A DNA stretch of 64,000 nucleotides from a virus, in the IMG/VR virus record IMGVR_UViG_3300026457_000013, positions 1 to 64,000 of that record, one strand, 5' to 3'. This document shows positions 9,109-24,039 of the stretch, one piece after another (position 1 is the first letter of the stretch; each line of letters starts with the position of its first letter). The position numbers were made by a program, and so were the translations under genes. The notes under the pieces were generated by a model. It was given only the letters and a program-made list of their open reading frames with translations, did no database searches and had not been told where the DNA came from.

Positions 9109-9166
9109 TGACTGTCCTCTGTAGTTTAGGGTCAAGATAATATTATAACCCTAATAACAAAATTTT

Positions 9167-13118: not shown

Positions 13119-13196
13119 GTGAGAGTGGCTGAGTGGTCAAAGGCAACGGTCTGCAAAACCGTACAATCATCGGTTCAAATCCGATCTCTCACTCCA
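13119..13196 (+). tRNA. tRNA-Cys(GCA)
   Basis: cloverleaf, CTGCAAA loop, CCA; promoter TTGACA-17-TATAAT at 13079-13107. Confidence 0.92.
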
Positions 13197-13201
13197 AATA
13201 T

Positions 13202-13286
13202 GGACAACGAGCAGCATTGGCGACTGCAGCAGACTGTAAATCTGTCACCTCTGGTATACGGGGTTCGATTCCCTGGTTGTCCACCA
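13202..13286 (+). tRNA. tRNA-Tyr(GUA)
   Basis: CTGTAAA loop, long variable arm, CCA. Confidence 0.9.
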
Positions 13287-13288
13287 AT

Positions 13289-13366
13289 ACCTCCTTAGCT
13301 CAGATGGATTAGAGCAGCGGGCTACGAACTCGCAGGTCGGGCGTTCGAGTCGCTCAGGGGGTGCCA
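13289..13366 (+). tRNA. tRNA-Arg(ACG)
   Basis: CTACGAA loop, CCA. Confidence 0.92.
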
Positions 13367-13368
13367 AT

Positions 13369-13442
13369 TCCGGTGTAGTATAATGGCAGTGCAACGGTCT
13401 CCAAAACCGTTAGTGGGGGTTCGATTCCCTCCACCGGAGCCA
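13369..13442 (+). tRNA. tRNA-Trp(CCA)
   Basis: CTCCAAA loop, CCA. Confidence 0.92.
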
Positions 13443-13487
13443 AATCTTTAATATGCTAGTTGTTTACAGCTGATATATTAAAGATTT

Positions 13488-13577
13488 GGAAAGCGGGCCG
13501 GATGGTAAGGCAGCGGATTGCTAATCCGTAGATTCACGAAAGTGGGTCACAGGGTTCGACTCCCTGGCTTTCCGCCA
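13488..13577 (+). tRNA. tRNA-Ser(GCU)
   Basis: TTGCTAA loop, long variable arm, CCA. Confidence 0.92.
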
Positions 13578-13584
13578 AATCAAT

Positions 13585-13659
13585 TCTGAGATAGCTCAGC
13601 GGTAGAGCAGTTGGCTGTTAACCAATTGGTCGTAGGTTCGATCCCTACTCTCAGAGCCA
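13585..13659 (+). tRNA. tRNA-Asn(GUU)
   Basis: CTGTTAA loop, CCA. Confidence 0.93.
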
Positions 13660-13665
13660 AACAAT

Positions 13666-13739
13666 CGCGGGTTGTTGAAAAGGTATCATGAAGGTCTCAT
13701 AAGCCCTCGTTCTAGGTTCGACTCCTAGACCCGCAACCA
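13666..13739 (+). tRNA. tRNA-Met(CAU), initiator-like
   Basis: CTCATAA loop; C1xA72 mismatch as in fMet. Confidence 0.85.
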
Positions 13740-13740
13740 A

Positions 13741-13816
13741 TCCAGATTAGCTCAGTTGGTAGAGCAAACGACCGATAATCGTTAGGTCAGTGGTTCGAGT
13801 CCACTATCTAGAACCA
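13741..13816 (+). tRNA. tRNA-Ile(GAU)
   Basis: CCGATAA loop, GTTCGAGTC, CCA. Confidence 0.9.
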
Positions 13817-18543: not shown

Positions 18544-19107
18544 ATGGCCAATTGTTGGCTTATCAGTGACATGCATTTTGGTCATGCTAATATTATAAAA
18601 TTTACCAGGCACGACGGCACTTGGCTGCGTCCCTTTAGTAGTGTTGAAGAGATGGACGAATACATGATCGACAACTGGAACAGTGTTGTCAATAGTAAAG
18701 ACCGTGTATACATGCTAGGTGATGTAGTTATCAATCGTAAAAACCTACATGTGTTGGGCAGACTTAGCGGACGTAAGGTGTTGATCAAAGGCAATCACGA
18801 TATTTTTCCTGCTGAAGAATACCTCAATTACGTAGATGATGTTCGTGGTTATCATGTACTTGACGGTATGCTGTTGAGTCATATACCAGTACATCCAGAT
18901 AGCCTACAGCGATTTGGCTGTAATATTCACGGACACCTACACTATCGTGAGGTTGTACTAGCAGGTGATAAAGTTGACCCTAGATATTTTAACGTAAGTG
19001 TAGAACGTGTTGACTATACTCCAATCAGCTTTGAAGAATGTAAGCGTATAATTAAATTTCGTGGTGGTCATGTAGGCTTCCACGAACACGGTGAAAGGGC
19101 AATGTAG
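18544..19107 (+). CDS. calcineurin-like metallophosphoesterase
   Basis: SDMHFGH, LGD, GNHD, SHIP, HGHLH. Confidence 0.9.
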   Translation: MANCWLISDMHFGHANIIKFTRHDGTWLRPFSSVEEMDEYMIDNWNSVVNSKDRVYMLGDVVINRKNLHVLGRLSGRKVLIKGNHDIFPAEEYLNYVDDVRGYHVLDGMLLSHIPVHPDSLQRFGCNIHGHLHYREVVLAGDKVDPRYFNVSVERVDYTPISFEECKRIIKFRGGHVGFHEHGERAM

Positions 19108-19376
19108 TGGCATATTATATCAGAGACGGTGAATTAGTACCTGTAGCTATTCCATTAAATCAACGTGTTAAGATTGGCAAGTACTACGAACCACCACAAC
19201 TAAGCTATCTTAGCAATGACCAGCTGTGGATACAAGATGTTTATGTGTTCAAGCAAATTCCCTGGTATATGATTAAAAATCGCTATGAACGTTACCTACT
19301 ATACGCTACCTTATACGGTGCTATAGTAGTAATGCTAACCATGATTGGCCGATATTGGCTAGGAGCACCCAATTGA
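19107..19376 (+). CDS. hypothetical membrane-anchored protein
   Basis: C-terminal hydrophobic helix. Confidence 0.6.
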   Translation: MAYYIRDGELVPVAIPLNQRVKIGKYYEPPQLSYLSNDQLWIQDVYVFKQIPWYMIKNRYERYLLYATLYGAIVVMLTMIGRYWLGAPN

Positions 19377-19556
19377 ACAAACAATTAGTAGAAACTTATC
19401 GTCGCCGGAGTTTTGCTAGGTTTATGAAGAATGAAACCAACTATGAACTCCTAGTGCAACTTGTAGTTGAAGATTGCCTGGCAATTATAGAAGCTAATAA
19501 GTCACCTAATAAAGTGGCAATGACCAATAAGATTAAACAACACTTTGGAATCAGTC

Positions 19557-19721
19557 ATGGAACAGAAGTATGAAACTATCGAGGTTGAGTTAACTGACGA
19601 AGAATTTTTACAAATAGCAAAACTTGCACACGATCTAGACGTTACCTTTAACAAAATGGTAGAGCGTATTCTGTGGGATGAAATTAATAAACAAGGCGAT
19701 CTTTTTAGTGGAGATGCGTAG
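19557..19721 (+). CDS. small RHH-like protein
   Basis: IEVELTDEEFLQIAKLAHDLDVTFNKMVERIL; below the ORF-track length cutoff. Confidence 0.55.
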   Translation: MEQKYETIEVELTDEEFLQIAKLAHDLDVTFNKMVERILWDEINKQGDLFSGDA

Positions 19722-20029
19722 TGGATCAAGAGATTATTGACGCAATTAACAGTGCTCTTAAACCAAATCAACAACCACAAACACCCACAAAATTGTCGCC
19801 AAGATTTAAGGCACTGGCTAGGGAATGTGGCTTTGTATTTTGGAATAGTGAACCACACGGCCCTGGGCCTGGACATATTGACTGGAGCTGTGATTATACT
19901 AGTGAGTTTGAACACTATAGCCGTGAACTTGTAATCTGGACTTGTGAACTAATGCGGCAGGAGATTGTACGCGACTACTTGTTTAGATCAAGTGAAAATA
20001 CATATAAGCACCTAGTAGTTCAAGATTAA
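19721..20029 (+). CDS. hypothetical protein
   Basis: LARECGFVFW...IDWSCDY motif. Confidence 0.65.
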   Translation: MDQEIIDAINSALKPNQQPQTPTKLSPRFKALARECGFVFWNSEPHGPGPGHIDWSCDYTSEFEHYSRELVIWTCELMRQEIVRDYLFRSSENTYKHLVVQD

Positions 20030-20077
20030 AAATTTTATCTTGAACTTGTAGCCCAAACCTTGCTATAATATTATTAT

Positions 20078-20790
20078 AGTCAGTGAGGAAAGTAAAGCCT
20101 GACAAGGCCCACAGCTTTAAATGACATTTTGCCACGCTTAGTAAATATTTTATCTTATACAAAATGTGCATTGTAGCGACCACTGACTGTACTTGGCAGT
20201 ATCCTAATGGCTAATAATCTACAGGAGAAATCAACGATAAAAAATCTTAGTTGCTTCCAACAACTAAGCGCGATATAGCCAGCGTTAGGGGCTTTAGGTT
20301 AGTTGCCAAACCTCCCACTGGGCAGACATCCAGGTTTAGGGTAAAACGGTAACGGAGTCTACCTTACTCCGACTAAGGTATGGACAGAGTAACAGCTCAA
20401 GCTAGGGCCATGTGGAAGTGGTGGCTAGCCAAATCCTCTGATGATTCATTGCGATATGATGAAACCCTAAACCCACAAGGTTGACGCTGTGGCCTTCAAT
20501 TGCCGCACCTGCCGCGGTTTAGGGTAAGGATAATAAGGCCCGATAAGCTTGCTGTCACATTCCCTAGTGGCTAGCGGCCAATGTCGAGGCGGGTGAGAGT
20601 CCCGTCAACTAAAATATGTGAGTGATGGTGGACTACGCATAAGGTTATTTGAGACCTGCGGACTGTCGTCCAATAGTAACAAGACAATATGATCCAGTTT
20701 AGGGACTGGTATCATATTCAAGCACACTGGTCGCCTCGTCAAGTGTGTTTGAATATGATTTTTCTTTGGCAGCCACTTGGCTGCCGTTTT
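20078..20790 (+). ncRNA. promoter-driven block of structured non-coding RNAs (~700 nt)
   Basis: TTGAAC...TATAAT at 20040-20069; no credible ORF; successive closed stems; terminal hairpin GGCAGCCACTTGGCTGCC-TTTTT. Confidence 0.65.
20433..20531 (+). ncRNA. hammerhead ribozyme (type I)
   Basis: ATCCT-CTGATGA-(T TCAT tgcgat ATGA T)-GAAA-CCCTAAACC...GGTTTAGGG-TA-AGGAT; stems I and III pair; GUA cleavage after 20526. Confidence 0.72.
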
Positions 20791-20804
20791 TGTCTGGAGA
20801 ACAA

Positions 20805-21047
20805 ATGTATACATGTAAAGTTGTTAACAGCTTAACTAGTGCCGTTGTTGATGAGTTTGAGGTTGACTATCTTTACGAAGCTAGACTAAAGTTTAGCAGG
20901 TGGCATGCAGATGCAGACCCAACACAATACGATTGTCACGTCTACGACGAGTTTGGCGATGCCATAGACTTTACCAGCGATATTGATAGTAGTGTGTACG
21001 AGCCTAGTGAGTACGATGAGTGGATGAGTTATGACCCAGATTGTTAA
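20805..21047 (+). CDS. acidic hypothetical protein
   Basis: ATG after GGAG; ends EPSEYDEWMSYDPDC. Confidence 0.7.
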   Translation: MYTCKVVNSLTSAVVDEFEVDYLYEARLKFSRWHADADPTQYDCHVYDEFGDAIDFTSDIDSSVYEPSEYDEWMSYDPDC

Positions 21048-21285
21048 ACTTGCCAAAGAGCACGGTGCTACACACAAGGCAAACCTAGGTGTTTATCAGT
21101 TCTATGAATATGAATGGGTCAACTATAATAATGCCCTAGTTGAAGTAGCGCTAGAGGCATTACAAGACTTACGCGGATATTCGGGCGTTGGCGCCGACGG
21201 CAATCCACTGTGCACCCACAGTTGGAACAGTGCACTGCTTGCAGCTGAACAGCTTATCAAGGAGCGCATCCTTGGCACTGTATAA
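21031..21285 (+). CDS. hypothetical protein
   Basis: 84-aa ORF in operon. Confidence 0.55.
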   Translation: MTQIVKLAKEHGATHKANLGVYQFYEYEWVNYNNALVEVALEALQDLRGYSGVGADGNPLCTHSWNSALLAAEQLIKERILGTV

Positions 21286-21556
21286 ACACTTATGCCCAGA
21301 CTGGGACTTCCTAGAAATAGACGATGAGTGTGAGGAGTTTAATACTTGTACATGCAAGATAGATAGTAGTGGTCAAACAGCTAAATTTACCGCTGGCACT
21401 AAAGTACTAGTACTGCCAAATCAAATGCAGGCTACTGTTATCAAACAGCACCTAAGCTATGACGGGCCTGAGAGTTTTTGGGGCAATGTACTAGTAGAGT
21501 ATAACGATGGTATTCGTGGTACTTGCAATAATTGGCAACTAAAATACATAGAGTAA
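21188..21556 (+). CDS. hypothetical protein (true start probably later)
   Basis: CPDWDFLEID and SYDGPESFWGNV motifs. Confidence 0.5.
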   Translation: MAPTAIHCAPTVGTVHCLQLNSLSRSASLALYKHLCPDWDFLEIDDECEEFNTCTCKIDSSGQTAKFTAGTKVLVLPNQMQATVIKQHLSYDGPESFWGNVLVEYNDGIRGTCNNWQLKYIE

Positions 21557-21714
21557 AACATGGATCATGACAACCACGGCTACAAGCGCACTATAATTTT
21601 TGTGTTACTGTTACTCTCACTCGTATTAGCCATGTTATTCGGCTAAACGGAAAATATTCTCTTGAAGTGCCGGCCTAACCAGTGTATAATATTTATATAA
21701 TGTGAGGAGCGACA

Positions 21715-21915
21715 ATGACTATTGAAGTGTATACACGTAAGGCTAAATTTGCCGAACTTAGTGCATATTGCCTTCACGCTAGTGATGGTGATTTTATGGA
21801 GGTATGTGAGTGGAGTAATGGTGAAGGGTTTGATGTTACCATCAACAACCGTACCCTGCAGTTCACATATGGCCAGTGGGACTGTTTACGAGTTTTGGTA
21901 AATTATAAAGACTAG
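21715..21915 (+). CDS. hypothetical protein
   Basis: EVCEWSNGEGFDV; own promoter and GAGGAG RBS. Confidence 0.75.
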   Translation: MTIEVYTRKAKFAELSAYCLHASDGDFMEVCEWSNGEGFDVTINNRTLQFTYGQWDCLRVLVNYKD

Positions 21916-22076
21916 AAATATTCACTTGATTTGTTGGTCAGAAGTCTGTATAATATTATTTATCGGTTAGAGAACAATCGCCAGAGAGTACAACCAACTA
22001 ATATTCGGGCTAAGCTATGACTTAGCAGCGGTACTCCCTCTAACCCTAGACAAATAGCAAATTACAAGGAGCACCT

Positions 22077-22370
22077 ATGCGATTCAAGTATACTGCAAAG
22101 AAGCCTAGCCGAGATCAGCTTGCTGGCATGAGTGCTAGCCAATTTAAGACCATGTTAAAGCGTAAGGGTTTTAAGGTTGATCGTGACTTCTTTAAGATAG
22201 GTGCAATGGCTAAGCGTGGTAACAGACTGTATCGCTTTCGTTACTGGGCATACCCTGATTTCTTTGTAGACATTAGCTGCCCTCTCGATGAATTTGATCG
22301 TTGGGCTAATAGTGTGGACAGTACCATTAACTTCTACAACTTCATCGAAACACAAACACTAAAGCAGTAA
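22077..22370 (+). CDS. basic hypothetical protein
   Basis: AAGGAG RBS; promoter at ~21926-21954 with structured leader. Confidence 0.7.
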   Translation: MRFKYTAKKPSRDQLAGMSASQFKTMLKRKGFKVDRDFFKIGAMAKRGNRLYRFRYWAYPDFFVDISCPLDEFDRWANSVDSTINFYNFIETQTLKQ

Positions 22371-22414
22371 AAATATTCACTTGAAGTTTATGTTCCCACA
22401 GTGTATAATATTAT

Positions 22415-23455
22415 TATTGAGTGACAAGTTTAGGGCGAACCAGGGCCAACATTAATCTGTTGGATAAGTTCTTAATCTGTGTTGAAAACACCCTTAACAC
22501 AGACCCCACGAATGGCAGATGGTCGTTGTTAAATGTGGATACTAAAAATATCCGCTCCTGAAAGGTGCAAATCCTAAAAGTATAGTCGGGCGAGAAGGCC
22601 GGGCAATCCAAGGAGATCAACCAAGGGCTATATGCAGAGTGCCAGGTAAAAACAACATTGACCAACCAACCTATTTGTATAATCACCGGCTTGATCCCAT
22701 GCAACTGGTGGTTATACAAATGTGTTGAAATCTGTGGCCAACGTGCTTGCGTAGCTAACCTGCTGCGGAACGGACGCACATGGTGGAAGCTGCAACCACC
22801 CTAAAGGAACCAGCCCCCTAGTTTGTCAATAGTTATAGGGGTTAACCAAAAGACCTGTTACCGTAGCATATACGTAGTTATGCGTTATCTAACACGAGAG
22901 TTAGAAACCAGTGGAGCCGATTCTGCGAAAGCATGGCGGCCACCCACTACATGCCAGTAGCTCAAACGTGCTCAGAGCAAAGGTGTGCTAGAAATAAGCC
23001 CTCTAGCCTGGCCAACAATTCAAACACAGTGCAGAGTGAACATTAGCCTATAGCTAGCTGCCAGCAACTAAAAACAGTGCGTTGCTAAGGTTTGAAACCG
23101 ATCCAGTTTAGGGTCGGGGTTTAGCAGTAACCTAAAACTGCTTGTGCCCTAAGGGGCCAATGCGCCAACAATAAATGGCAAGGCTATAACCACAGTGCCT
23201 GGTTAGTCGCGTTCTTATAATTGTTAATAGCCCTCAACGCAGGGTAATCTAGGTGCAAATCCTAGACGCGCTAGTTGCCCATCTTGGCTGGAACCCAAGA
23301 CCTAAAGCAACTAAGAACAGCAAATGTTCGTGGCATCAACTACACCGACTTACGACGACTCGCAATCGTCTAGAGTGTAGACAAAGATGAATGGTGGTCG
23401 TAGTAGCACTACATAAAAGTAATCCACCCCATTAAACCAAAAACAGCGCAGTTCA
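22415..23455 (+). ncRNA. very large structured ncRNA region (~1 kb), GOLLD/ROOL-like candidate
   Basis: promoter TTGAAG...TATAAT at 22381-22409, terminator at 23455-23479, no credible ORF, many hairpins, embedded tRNA-like element at ~23207-23271. Confidence 0.65.
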
Positions 23456-23479
23456 AAAGCCCGCCTTGTGCGGGCTTTT
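23455..23479 (+). terminator. rho-independent terminator
   Basis: AAAAGCCCGC-CTTGT-GCGGGCTTTT. Confidence 0.85.
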
Positions 23480-23502
23480 GTTTATCTAAAAGGCTATAAA
23501 AC

Positions 23503-23715
23503 ATGTCTCAAGAATTAACCAACCAGCAACTAAAAGACCTTAACGACGATGTCCAAGAATTCATCGACAAGCTAAGGATACACTACAACGACGATACCCT
23601 AGCCATTGCAGCAGCACTAACGCAGTGGGGGCTAAGGCTTTACAAGAGTGAGCTGAGCACACCAGAATTCTACCAACTATTAGTCTACACAATTGAAACT
23701 AACCGCTTCCTCTGA
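23503..23715 (+). CDS. hypothetical protein
   Basis: 70-aa ORF. Confidence 0.65.
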   Translation: MSQELTNQQLKDLNDDVQEFIDKLRIHYNDDTLAIAAALTQWGLRLYKSELSTPEFYQLLVYTIETNRFL

Positions 23716-24039
23716 CCCTAAACCTCAACAACCCTCACTAAAAAATTCACTTGTTTTTGCTTATGCAAATGTGATATAATTTATTATAAATTGAAAAAAT
23801 TTAGAATTAGCAGCTGTACAGTGCAACTAGTACAAAACTCTGGGGGGTGTCCTGGCAAGGGGGGATCCAGGGGGCTTTGTGCTAGGTAGCTCGCAACCGG
23901 TACAAGGCTAGCTAATTCTAGAGATTTAGGGTCAAATCTCGAACCTTAAAAAGAGCAAATATAAAAATTAAAGCAAATTTTCCCACCCCCCAAAAGTGCT
24001 CCAGCCCTAGCAAAACCACAACTAACCAAACAAGCTAAA

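Follow-up and report, generated by a model that had tools for sequence, protein, structure and literature searches.

The stretch at 20078-20790 of a viral DNA sequence (the first 64 kb of the 82-kb IMG/VR viral record IMGVR_UViG_3300026457_000013, hereafter the window) is probably a stable-RNA operon. It would yield a ~715-nucleotide (nt) untranslated precursor composed of a domain that we call D1, an X-type RNA, a type I hammerhead ribozyme and a further RNA, B, with its clamp hairpin, and this precursor would be cut at the hammerhead. The initial annotation of this block had proposed a polycistronic precursor whose small RNAs would mostly belong to unknown families. This description fits better than a single giant RNA, given the separate occurrence of X and B, the gain and loss of whole blocks, the position of a ribozyme between X and B and the RNA depth. 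The structural elements proposed at that time were, taken as a whole, partly confirmed.

Judging from its signals, the region 20040-20794 is one + strand transcription unit that runs from a promoter to an intrinsic terminator. The sigma-70-type promoter (20040-20069) comprises TTGAAC, an 18-nt spacer with TG and TATAAT, with 10 of 12 matches to the consensus, and its position predicts a transcript start at ~20076. Among the 18 aligned homologues, 17 retain the -10 hexamer, and the remaining one (L084) is devoid of the segment. The terminator (20767-20794) consists of an 8-bp stem at 20767-20786 with six G-C pairs, then a T run, and it is present in all four homologues of alignment A2 that reach that far. 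No open reading frame (ORF) of note is conserved in 20040-20794 among the homologues, in agreement with the initial description of a gene-free block behind a consensus promoter. The homologues differ by indels of 1, 2, 3, 29, 44, 46 and ~215 nt. The predicted fold of the + strand has a free energy of -237.9 kcal/mol, with a z-score of -5.3 relative to 20 shuffles, compared with -3.0 for the - strand (20 shuffles). Upstream of the unit, a 19-nt inverted repeat with 84% complementarity (20012-20051) covers both the stop codon of the preceding ORF and the -35 hexamer of the unit; it could be the terminator of the upstream gene or an operator.

Full-unit homologues were found in 20 contigs, with 70-95% identity. 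Four of them are viral contigs (77-84% identical, one truncated by the contig end) recruited via a neighbouring protein and DNA motifs, and the other 16 are metagenome contigs (70-95% identical) recruited via a 21-nt motif that spans the ribozyme-B junction. The alignments of the 5' part and of the ribozyme (A4 and A5) contain 18 distinct sequences, as one too-short contig and two duplicates were left out. Covariation of the 5' part was assessed on the RNAalifold structure, from which a spurious pairing of the promoter region was removed and to which the pseudoknot of the initial annotation was added. As controls, the pairing partners were slid by 1-3 columns, and 500 shuffles were generated. 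Standard pairs occupy 97.2% of the 1546 cells of the 5' part, versus 33-41% with slid partners, and 22 of its 86 pairs show changes on both sides, versus 12.6 [standard deviation (sd) 2.0] in the shuffles, none of which reached 22. The B alignment (20 sequences) gave 94.4% of paired cells versus 32-41% for slid partners, with 20 of 48 pairs compensated versus 11.0 (sd 1.9) in the shuffles, and 20 was reached by 0 of 500. Comparison of homologues, which the initial annotation had suggested as a check, thus indicates that the helices of both parts are kept by compensatory changes.

A search of Rfam 15 had been suggested as well. No family matched the 20078-20790 stretch at gathering scores, which fits the expectation of mostly unknown families. 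At E-values up to 10, the sole match on 19950-20900 was flavi_FSE, with 13.6 bits, taken as chance, and the matches found on the homologues (mir-454, group-II-D1D4-4 on a 19-nt word, CRISPR-DR61 and ctRNA_p42d) were also judged to be chance. BLASTN of the whole unit against cultured phages returned no match at E-values up to 1e-5. RNase P RNA was considered since GAGGAAAGU and ACAGAG resemble its conserved regions. This identity was rejected: there is no Rfam RNase P match, and a P4 helix was ruled out, the two segments not being complementary by eye. Four of the eight stretches found in a 16-mer scan are unrelated ORF-like sequence without a hammerhead core, and the likeness of L015 and L016 is confined to the 17-mer itself, which makes them chance matches.

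The type I hammerhead is found at 20433-20531 on the + strand, with a predicted cut after A20526 (20526|20527). Stem I, AUCCU (20433-20437) paired with AGGAU (20527-20531), never varies, and the core, made of CUGAUGA (20438-20444, C3-A9) and GAA (20461-20463, G12-A14), is invariant in all 18 homologues. Stem II pairs 20445-20449 with 20456-20460. Stem III pairs ACCCUAAACC (20464-20473) with GGUUUAGGGU (20516-20525) and encloses a 42-nt insert with a hairpin of its own. The required A15.1-U16.1 pair is represented by A20464 and U20525, followed by A20526, a cleavage-site base other than G, and these features are invariant. In the alignment, 95.6% of the cells are paired versus 32-44% for slid partners. 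Changes on both sides affect four of the five pairs of stem II and all five pairs of the insert hairpin, and all changes in the 5' strand of stem III but two still pair. The versions of stem II are UUCAU/AUGAU, GCUGG/CCAGC, GCCAC/GUGGC and GCCAU/AUGGC, all of which pair except for the U-U that closes the first. When a strict hammerhead descriptor was run over the two strands of the window, this site was the only hit, and 300 shuffles gave no hit. Both this unique site and the covariation of stem II and of the insert hairpin support the hammerhead that had been noticed initially. The idea that a second copy of GGTTTAGGGTA, at 20333, competes for stem III was abandoned, as this copy is absent from 8 of 18 homologues.

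Similar ribozymes occur in other phages. A scan with the stem I and core pattern matched 46 viral stretches, including four from the window's clade. Most of the 43 further matches are compact type I hammerheads ending with GUC before AGGAUU, and 12 of the 43 resemble the window copy in their long stem III insert and in their ...UAGGGUC 3' strand. Dozens of the compact type I hammerheads (L034-L075), with the common stem I AAUCCU/AGGAUU, are intergenic in large phage contigs.

The B RNA is ~190 nt long (20527-20717, + strand) and is predicted to form a multi-helix junction. Its hairpins include one with the loop UCCCUA (20561-20566), one at 20589-20607, one at 20616-20642 with the conserved loop GAUGGUGG, and one small hairpin. 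The last hairpin, 20694-20709, has the loop UUUAGGGA and is closed by 20686-20692 paired with 20712-20718. The hairpin at 20589-20607 is the element initially described as T-arm-like (GCGGG-TGAGAGT-CCCGT), and it covaries. The loops UCCCUA and UAGGGA are mutually complementary and both invariant, and hence a loop-loop contact is possible. Within the clade, B is nearly invariant, and it is ~80% identical in other phages devoid of the hammerhead. A degenerate 22-mer for B matched 23 viral stretches and none of 185,579 prokaryote genomes. Among cultured phages, BLASTN matched B only in Limnohabitans phage DC31, whose host genus is a freshwater betaproteobacterium. There, B is located in an unannotated gap (L033 2870-3260; PQ492658 44885-45275) that contains in order a transfer RNA (tRNA)-like element not called by ARAGORN, B, the clamp hairpin, a Shine-Dalgarno sequence and a start codon.

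The genetic context of B suggests what the hammerhead replaces. In seven phage loci, B starts after a tRNA whose 3' end is 84-92 nt upstream of the B core, and in the window's clade the predicted cut is 85 nt upstream of this core. The hammerhead thus occupies the position of the tRNA. Other elements precede B elsewhere: a separate ~155-nt module in four loci (L012, L014, L026 and L028) and an ORF in three. The window keeps this module at 22512-22668, in a second unit described below, and the same unit of the close relatives L006 and L008 is devoid of it. Of 20 loci, only one had a transfer-messenger RNA (tmRNA) called by ARAGORN after B, and no linkage is claimed. The tRNA array of one B-bearing phage contains a group I intron (L014 13185-13378; 53.4 bits in Rfam for a cut-off of 50).

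B is followed by the clamp hairpin (20711-20759, + strand), of 17-23 bp, whose 23-nt arms are 87% complementary. In 17 of the 20 distinct B loci, a hairpin of at least 17 pairs with at most one mismatch comes directly after B. Its arms vary by lineage, its inner part ranges from a few to ~95 nt, and cargo of 29-44 nt was gained or lost between close relatives. Since the 5' arm of the clamp overlaps the closing strand of B, the clamp and the last helix of B are mutually exclusive pairings. The long stems initially noted at 20688-20760 were recovered at 20686-20759 as conserved, covarying helices. In L003 (5021-5230), L004, L006, L008 and several metagenome homologues, an additional ~150-215-nt module separates the clamp hairpin from the terminator; it has a conserved core within a 17-bp closing stem, and the window is devoid of it.

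The X-type body (20241-20432, + strand; helices 5-13 of the 5' part) comprises a hairpin at 20246-20268, helices up to 20350, a pseudoknot at 20354-20380 and a 3' module made of an 18-nt motif (20382-20399) and a hairpin (20400-20429). Six of the eight pairs of the hairpin 20246-20268 are compensated, and covariation also supports well the helix at ~20270-20300, the pairing of 20299-20305 with 20345-20350, the pseudoknot and the hairpin 20400-20429. The H-type pseudoknot had been proposed initially as CGGAGT-CTACCTT-ACTCCG...AAGGTA. Its stem (20354-20357 with 20367-20370) and the pairing of its loop (20360-20366) with 20374-20380 both covary.

The 18-nt motif matched at least 120 viral stretches, of which 118 were read; all counts for X are among the matches listed. 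The hairpin signature that follows the motif, with its conserved GGGC and GU(A/G)GC shoulders, is present in 116 of the 118, and the hairpin of the 3' module covaries in 50 sequences. Only 1 of the 12 matches to the motif in prokaryote genomes has this signature, which is lacking in the other 11. The viral matches are mostly located in tRNA arrays, where the spacing is fixed. In the 70 stretches with a tRNA within 450 nt upstream, the distance from the tRNA end to the motif is 133-160 nt in 50, and in the 89 stretches with a tRNA within 260 nt downstream, this tRNA starts 37-43 nt past the motif in 35. In the window, a distance of 33 nt separates the motif from the start of the hammerhead's stem I, at the place where other phages start a tRNA. 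Twenty X copies are flanked by tRNAs on either side, and their lengths are 193-214 nt. The body of the window copy (20192-20432) has 241 nt, or ~194 nt without an optional insert, as in 13 of the 18 homologues. A putative closing helix (..GUUAC of the 5' end with the GUAAC of the motif) was identified by eye in the tRNA-flanked copies, in which the motif is fixed by the search pattern. The 5' body of X in other phages falls into several unrelated-looking types. We call the window copy X-type because of its 3' module, its length and its position, not because of its whole fold. Rfam gave no family at E-values up to 0.1 for tRNA-flanked X copies from six loci, and BLASTN of a typical X against cultured phages gave nothing at E-values up to 1e-3.

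The optional insert of ~46 nt (20193-20240, + strand) is present in 5 of 18 homologues, namely the window, L076, L081, L084 and L089. It bears on the TTGGCA...TGCCAA closure (~20194-20309) of the initial annotation, which did not hold: the 5' strand of this closure is within the insert, and L076 and L089 cannot form it. The alternative given by RNAalifold, in which 20299-20305 pairs with 20345-20350, is kept in all 18 sequences.

D1 (20075-20191, + strand) has an 11-bp closing stem (20075-20085 with 20181-20191) that encloses a small covarying hairpin and a long, near-invariant one. Three of the four pairs of its helix 2 are changed on both sides, and helices 1, 3 and 4 are nearly constant. 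The closure AGTCAGTG...CACTGACT of the initial annotation is present in 17 of 18 homologues, and its near-constancy leaves covariation neutral. More generally, covariation is silent on the closing stem and the long hairpin because both hardly vary. A scan of viral contigs with a D1 motif found only the four contigs of the clade and three chance matches (L210-L212); in terms of sequence, D1 is thus specific to the window's clade. D1 begins at the predicted first transcribed base. It may be a leader domain that protects the untranslated transcript or aids its folding. An invariant segment of D1, GCUUUAAAU, may resemble the boxA of rrn operons.

RNA evidence came from metatranscriptomes. Six runs hold approximately half of the sampled words of the stretch, and the contigs of four of them were mapped on 19000-24000. 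RNA contigs are present within the unit in all four runs, although parts of the stretch are devoid of them. Their depth in the unit greatly exceeds that over the genes on either side. The summed contig depths in the four runs are about 41, 54, 46 and 0 over 19668-20001; they reach 1807, 1515, 3389 and 38 over 20169-20335, then 617, 799, 719 and 12 over 20336-20502, and 71, 165, 736 and 5 over 20503-20669, and are about 8, 10, 27 and 0 over 20837-21003. Over a second unit (22415-23479), which was not used to pick the runs, the depth is up to 13,200. Adapter letters are found at contig ends at 20505 (in two runs), 20548 and 23437, all oriented as they would be with the + strand read by the second mate; a further contig end is at 20686. 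Under common stranded protocols, this orientation fits + strand RNA, the library type not being stated.

We propose the following course of events. The host RNA polymerase would start at ~20076 and stop near 20790, producing the ~715-nt untranslated precursor. The latter would fold as independent cassettes, D1, the X-type RNA, the type I hammerhead, and B with its clamp hairpin. The predicted cut of the hammerhead between A20526 and A20527 would endow B with a 5'-hydroxyl end, and this 5' end would correspond to the one left elsewhere by 3' processing of the upstream tRNA. The ribozyme would remain on the 3' side of X after the cut, and host nucleases would trim the remaining ends. The processing into separate molecules, the self-cleavage, the final RNA ends and the action of X and B in trans are thus what we infer.

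X and B keep a constant place among tRNA and tmRNA genes, which suggests that they may belong to the phage's tool kit for tRNAs and translation. The window contains 11 tRNA genes and a permuted, two-piece tmRNA of betaproteobacterial type. The latter (tag ANDEVFALAA) adjoins a tRNA-Thr gene at 217-609 on the - strand; eight of the tRNA genes form a cluster at 13119-13816, and the X and B RNAs of this phage lie outside it. A more specific proposal, to which we give a small chance, is that X and B act in trans as components of the tRNA and tmRNA machinery and are modular enough for a ribozyme to have replaced the 'tRNA punctuation' when they left the array, and that the B loop may bind the acceptor ends of some tRNAs or of tmRNA. 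The loop (20625-20632 and neighbours) is complementary to GUCCACCA, the 3' end of the acceptor piece of the phage's tmRNA and of its tRNA-Tyr. Four B-bearing loci (L013, L014, L018 and L028) have a tRNA-Ala with this same 3' end. The B loop of DC31 differs at three positions and by eye still pairs, with wobble, to the 3' end of the upstream tRNA-like element. However, in 5 of the 20 B copies, the base opposite C75 of the tRNA end would be an A.

Several observations weigh against the operon that we propose. The usual pair closing stem II of hammerheads is G10.1-C11.1. The window copy has U-U instead; of the 16 distinct sequences, 4 have U-U and 12 have G-C. The window hammerhead may therefore be slow or inactive. 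Because the pattern that recruited the 16 metagenome homologues included the 3' strands of stems I and III, the invariance of these strands is partly by construction. Even at E-values up to 10, Rfam does not match a hammerhead in the window, and the type III model Hammerhead_3 gives only 28.0 bits for L004 and 16.3 bits for L008, for a cut-off of 48.5. This silence on the window counts for little, because compact, canonical-looking type I hammerheads of phages also fall below the Rfam cut-offs in the four loci checked. The type III topology implied by the Rfam alignment of these two homologues was rejected, as stem III would have only ~3 pairs and the cleavage-site base of the window would be G. 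For X, only 20379-20431, i.e. the last ~55 nt of the window body, resembles the X copies of other phages, and the closing helix, judged by eye, is down to four possible pairs in the window. As for the RNA data, one contig of run X18 (20242-20663) bridges the predicted cut, and two runs have their adapter-bearing ends at 20505, which is 21 nt before 20526. A distance of 1 nt separates these ends from the 3' base of the hairpin in the stem III insert, and our guess is that they could reflect trimming after cleavage. In addition, contig depth measures expression poorly, and the contigs of related strains were summed.

Some of these observations would also fit an 'ornate' RNA of ~700 nt that acts as a whole, in the manner of GOLLD or ROOL, with the hammerhead-like core as a non-cutting structural relic. 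The single promoter and terminator, the contig that crosses the predicted cut, the U-U closure in the window copy and a minimum free energy fold that joins distant parts of the transcript all favour this explanation, which we nevertheless consider unlikely. X and B occur separately in other phages, and the window's clade is the only one in which they adjoin each other, considering the listed matches for X and the 23 viral stretches for B. Between close relatives, whole blocks come and go, namely the 46-nt insert, the 29-44-nt clamp cargo and the ~215-nt module. The canonical G-C closure of stem II in 12 of 16 distinct homologues does not suggest a relic, and RNAalifold recovers none of the long-range pairs of the single-sequence fold apart from the promoter-region artefact that was removed. 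GOLLD and ROOL are large, intricately folded RNAs of phages and prophages that are often located near tRNA genes. Unlike them, the unit appears as a chain of separable cassettes rather than one fold, and their Rfam models gave no gathering-score match in the window or in six related loci.

A long cis-acting leader that governs read-through into the downstream genes is far less probable than the stable-RNA operon. Its switch would be formed by the exclusive pairings at ~20686-20759 together with the terminator, and an ORF does start at 20805, behind GGAG. The segment 20711-20718 pairs either with 20686-20692 or inside the clamp, and this three-strand layout recurs, with covariation, in other lineages. 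Furthermore, loci of the L021/L029 type and DC31 have a Shine-Dalgarno sequence and a start codon directly 3' of the clamp. In contrast, the next feature in most B loci is a tRNA rather than an ORF, the clamp hairpin of other phages is not followed by a T run, and the depth of RNA contigs drops sharply past the terminator.

That the stretch is a DNA-level element, i.e. an array of protein-binding sites or an origin built on the enriched word GTTTAGGG/CCCTAAAC, is barely credible: although the 9-mer GGTTTAGGG occurs 10 times in the window versus 0.37 expected, with three copies in this stretch, and the 8-mer is also found beside promoters elsewhere in the window, compensatory and G-U-compatible changes keep the helices of the + strand RNA, fold stability is unequal between the strands (z = -5.3 versus -3.0), deep RNA contigs cover the stretch, and 8 of 18 homologues are devoid of the copy at 20333.

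The proposed stable-RNA operon has counterparts among known systems. The species 1 and 2 RNAs of phage T4 (rnaC and rnaD) are small stable RNAs co-transcribed with phage tRNA operons and then excised. The likeness of X and B to them is by description only: X and B have ~190-210 nt, and they are outside the tRNA array in this phage. Hammerheads have been described in intergenic regions of phages, along with polycistronic RNAs cut by several of them (Perreault et al. 2011, PMC3088659). As in the type I phage hammerheads of that work, the window copy has a full core, three helices and an open stem I, and it is part of a non-coding phage sequence within a multi-part transcript. It differs from them by its 42-nt stem III insert with a conserved hairpin and by the U-U closure of stem II. 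It would also part two non-coding RNAs rather than mRNAs, and it is below the Rfam cut-offs. Theta ribozymes, which are hepatitis delta virus-like, adjoin phage tRNAs and trim their 3' ends (Kienbeck et al. 2024, PMC10879173). The common theme is a small self-cleaving class in the context of phage stable RNAs that replaces protein or ribonucleoprotein enzymes in end formation. Unlike theta ribozymes, however, the hammerhead belongs to another class, and here it would replace the tRNA itself and set the 5' end of an RNA that is not a tRNA.

Candidate structured RNAs, including tRNA-like ones, were reported from the IMG/VR collection, with sizes of 29-151 nt and a mean of 67 (Fremin et al. 2023, PMC10690425). 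That study used the same viral collection and comparative prediction, and its text, as far as available, names no motif like X or B. In the accessible portions of the literature we found no description of X, of B or of a tRNA-replacing hammerhead; the supplementary list of PMC10690425 may include fragments of them. Thus, phage hammerheads and ribozymes that process phage tRNAs are already in print, and X, B and the putative tRNA-replacing hammerhead were not found in those portions.

If our proposal is correct, a natural hammerhead does the job of tRNA processing by setting the end of a neighbouring stable RNA. This would provide a concrete, testable role for bacterial and phage hammerheads, for which few roles are established. 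X, in more than 100 phage contigs, and B, in approximately two dozen, represent two well-supported RNA families without an Rfam match. B is also present in a cultured phage-host pair, that of Limnohabitans phage DC31, open to deletion and study, and river metatranscriptomes suggest that RNAs of the unit are abundant. Should X and B target the ends of tRNAs or of tmRNA, or counter host defences directed at tRNAs, they would add an RNA layer to the control of translation by phages.

The enriched word GTTTAGGG/CCCTAAAC, often in the form GACCCTAAAC, is also located at gene ends and beside promoters, e.g. at 9124, 23716, 25146, 25246, 25434, 30258 and 35023. It may have a DNA-level role besides its use in RNA helices and loops here. 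Lastly, the second unit, at 22415-23479, is likewise ORF-free and runs from promoter to terminator over ~1.06 kb. It contains a short B-like remnant at ~23060-23125, and contig variants skip or replace its segment 23012-23106.

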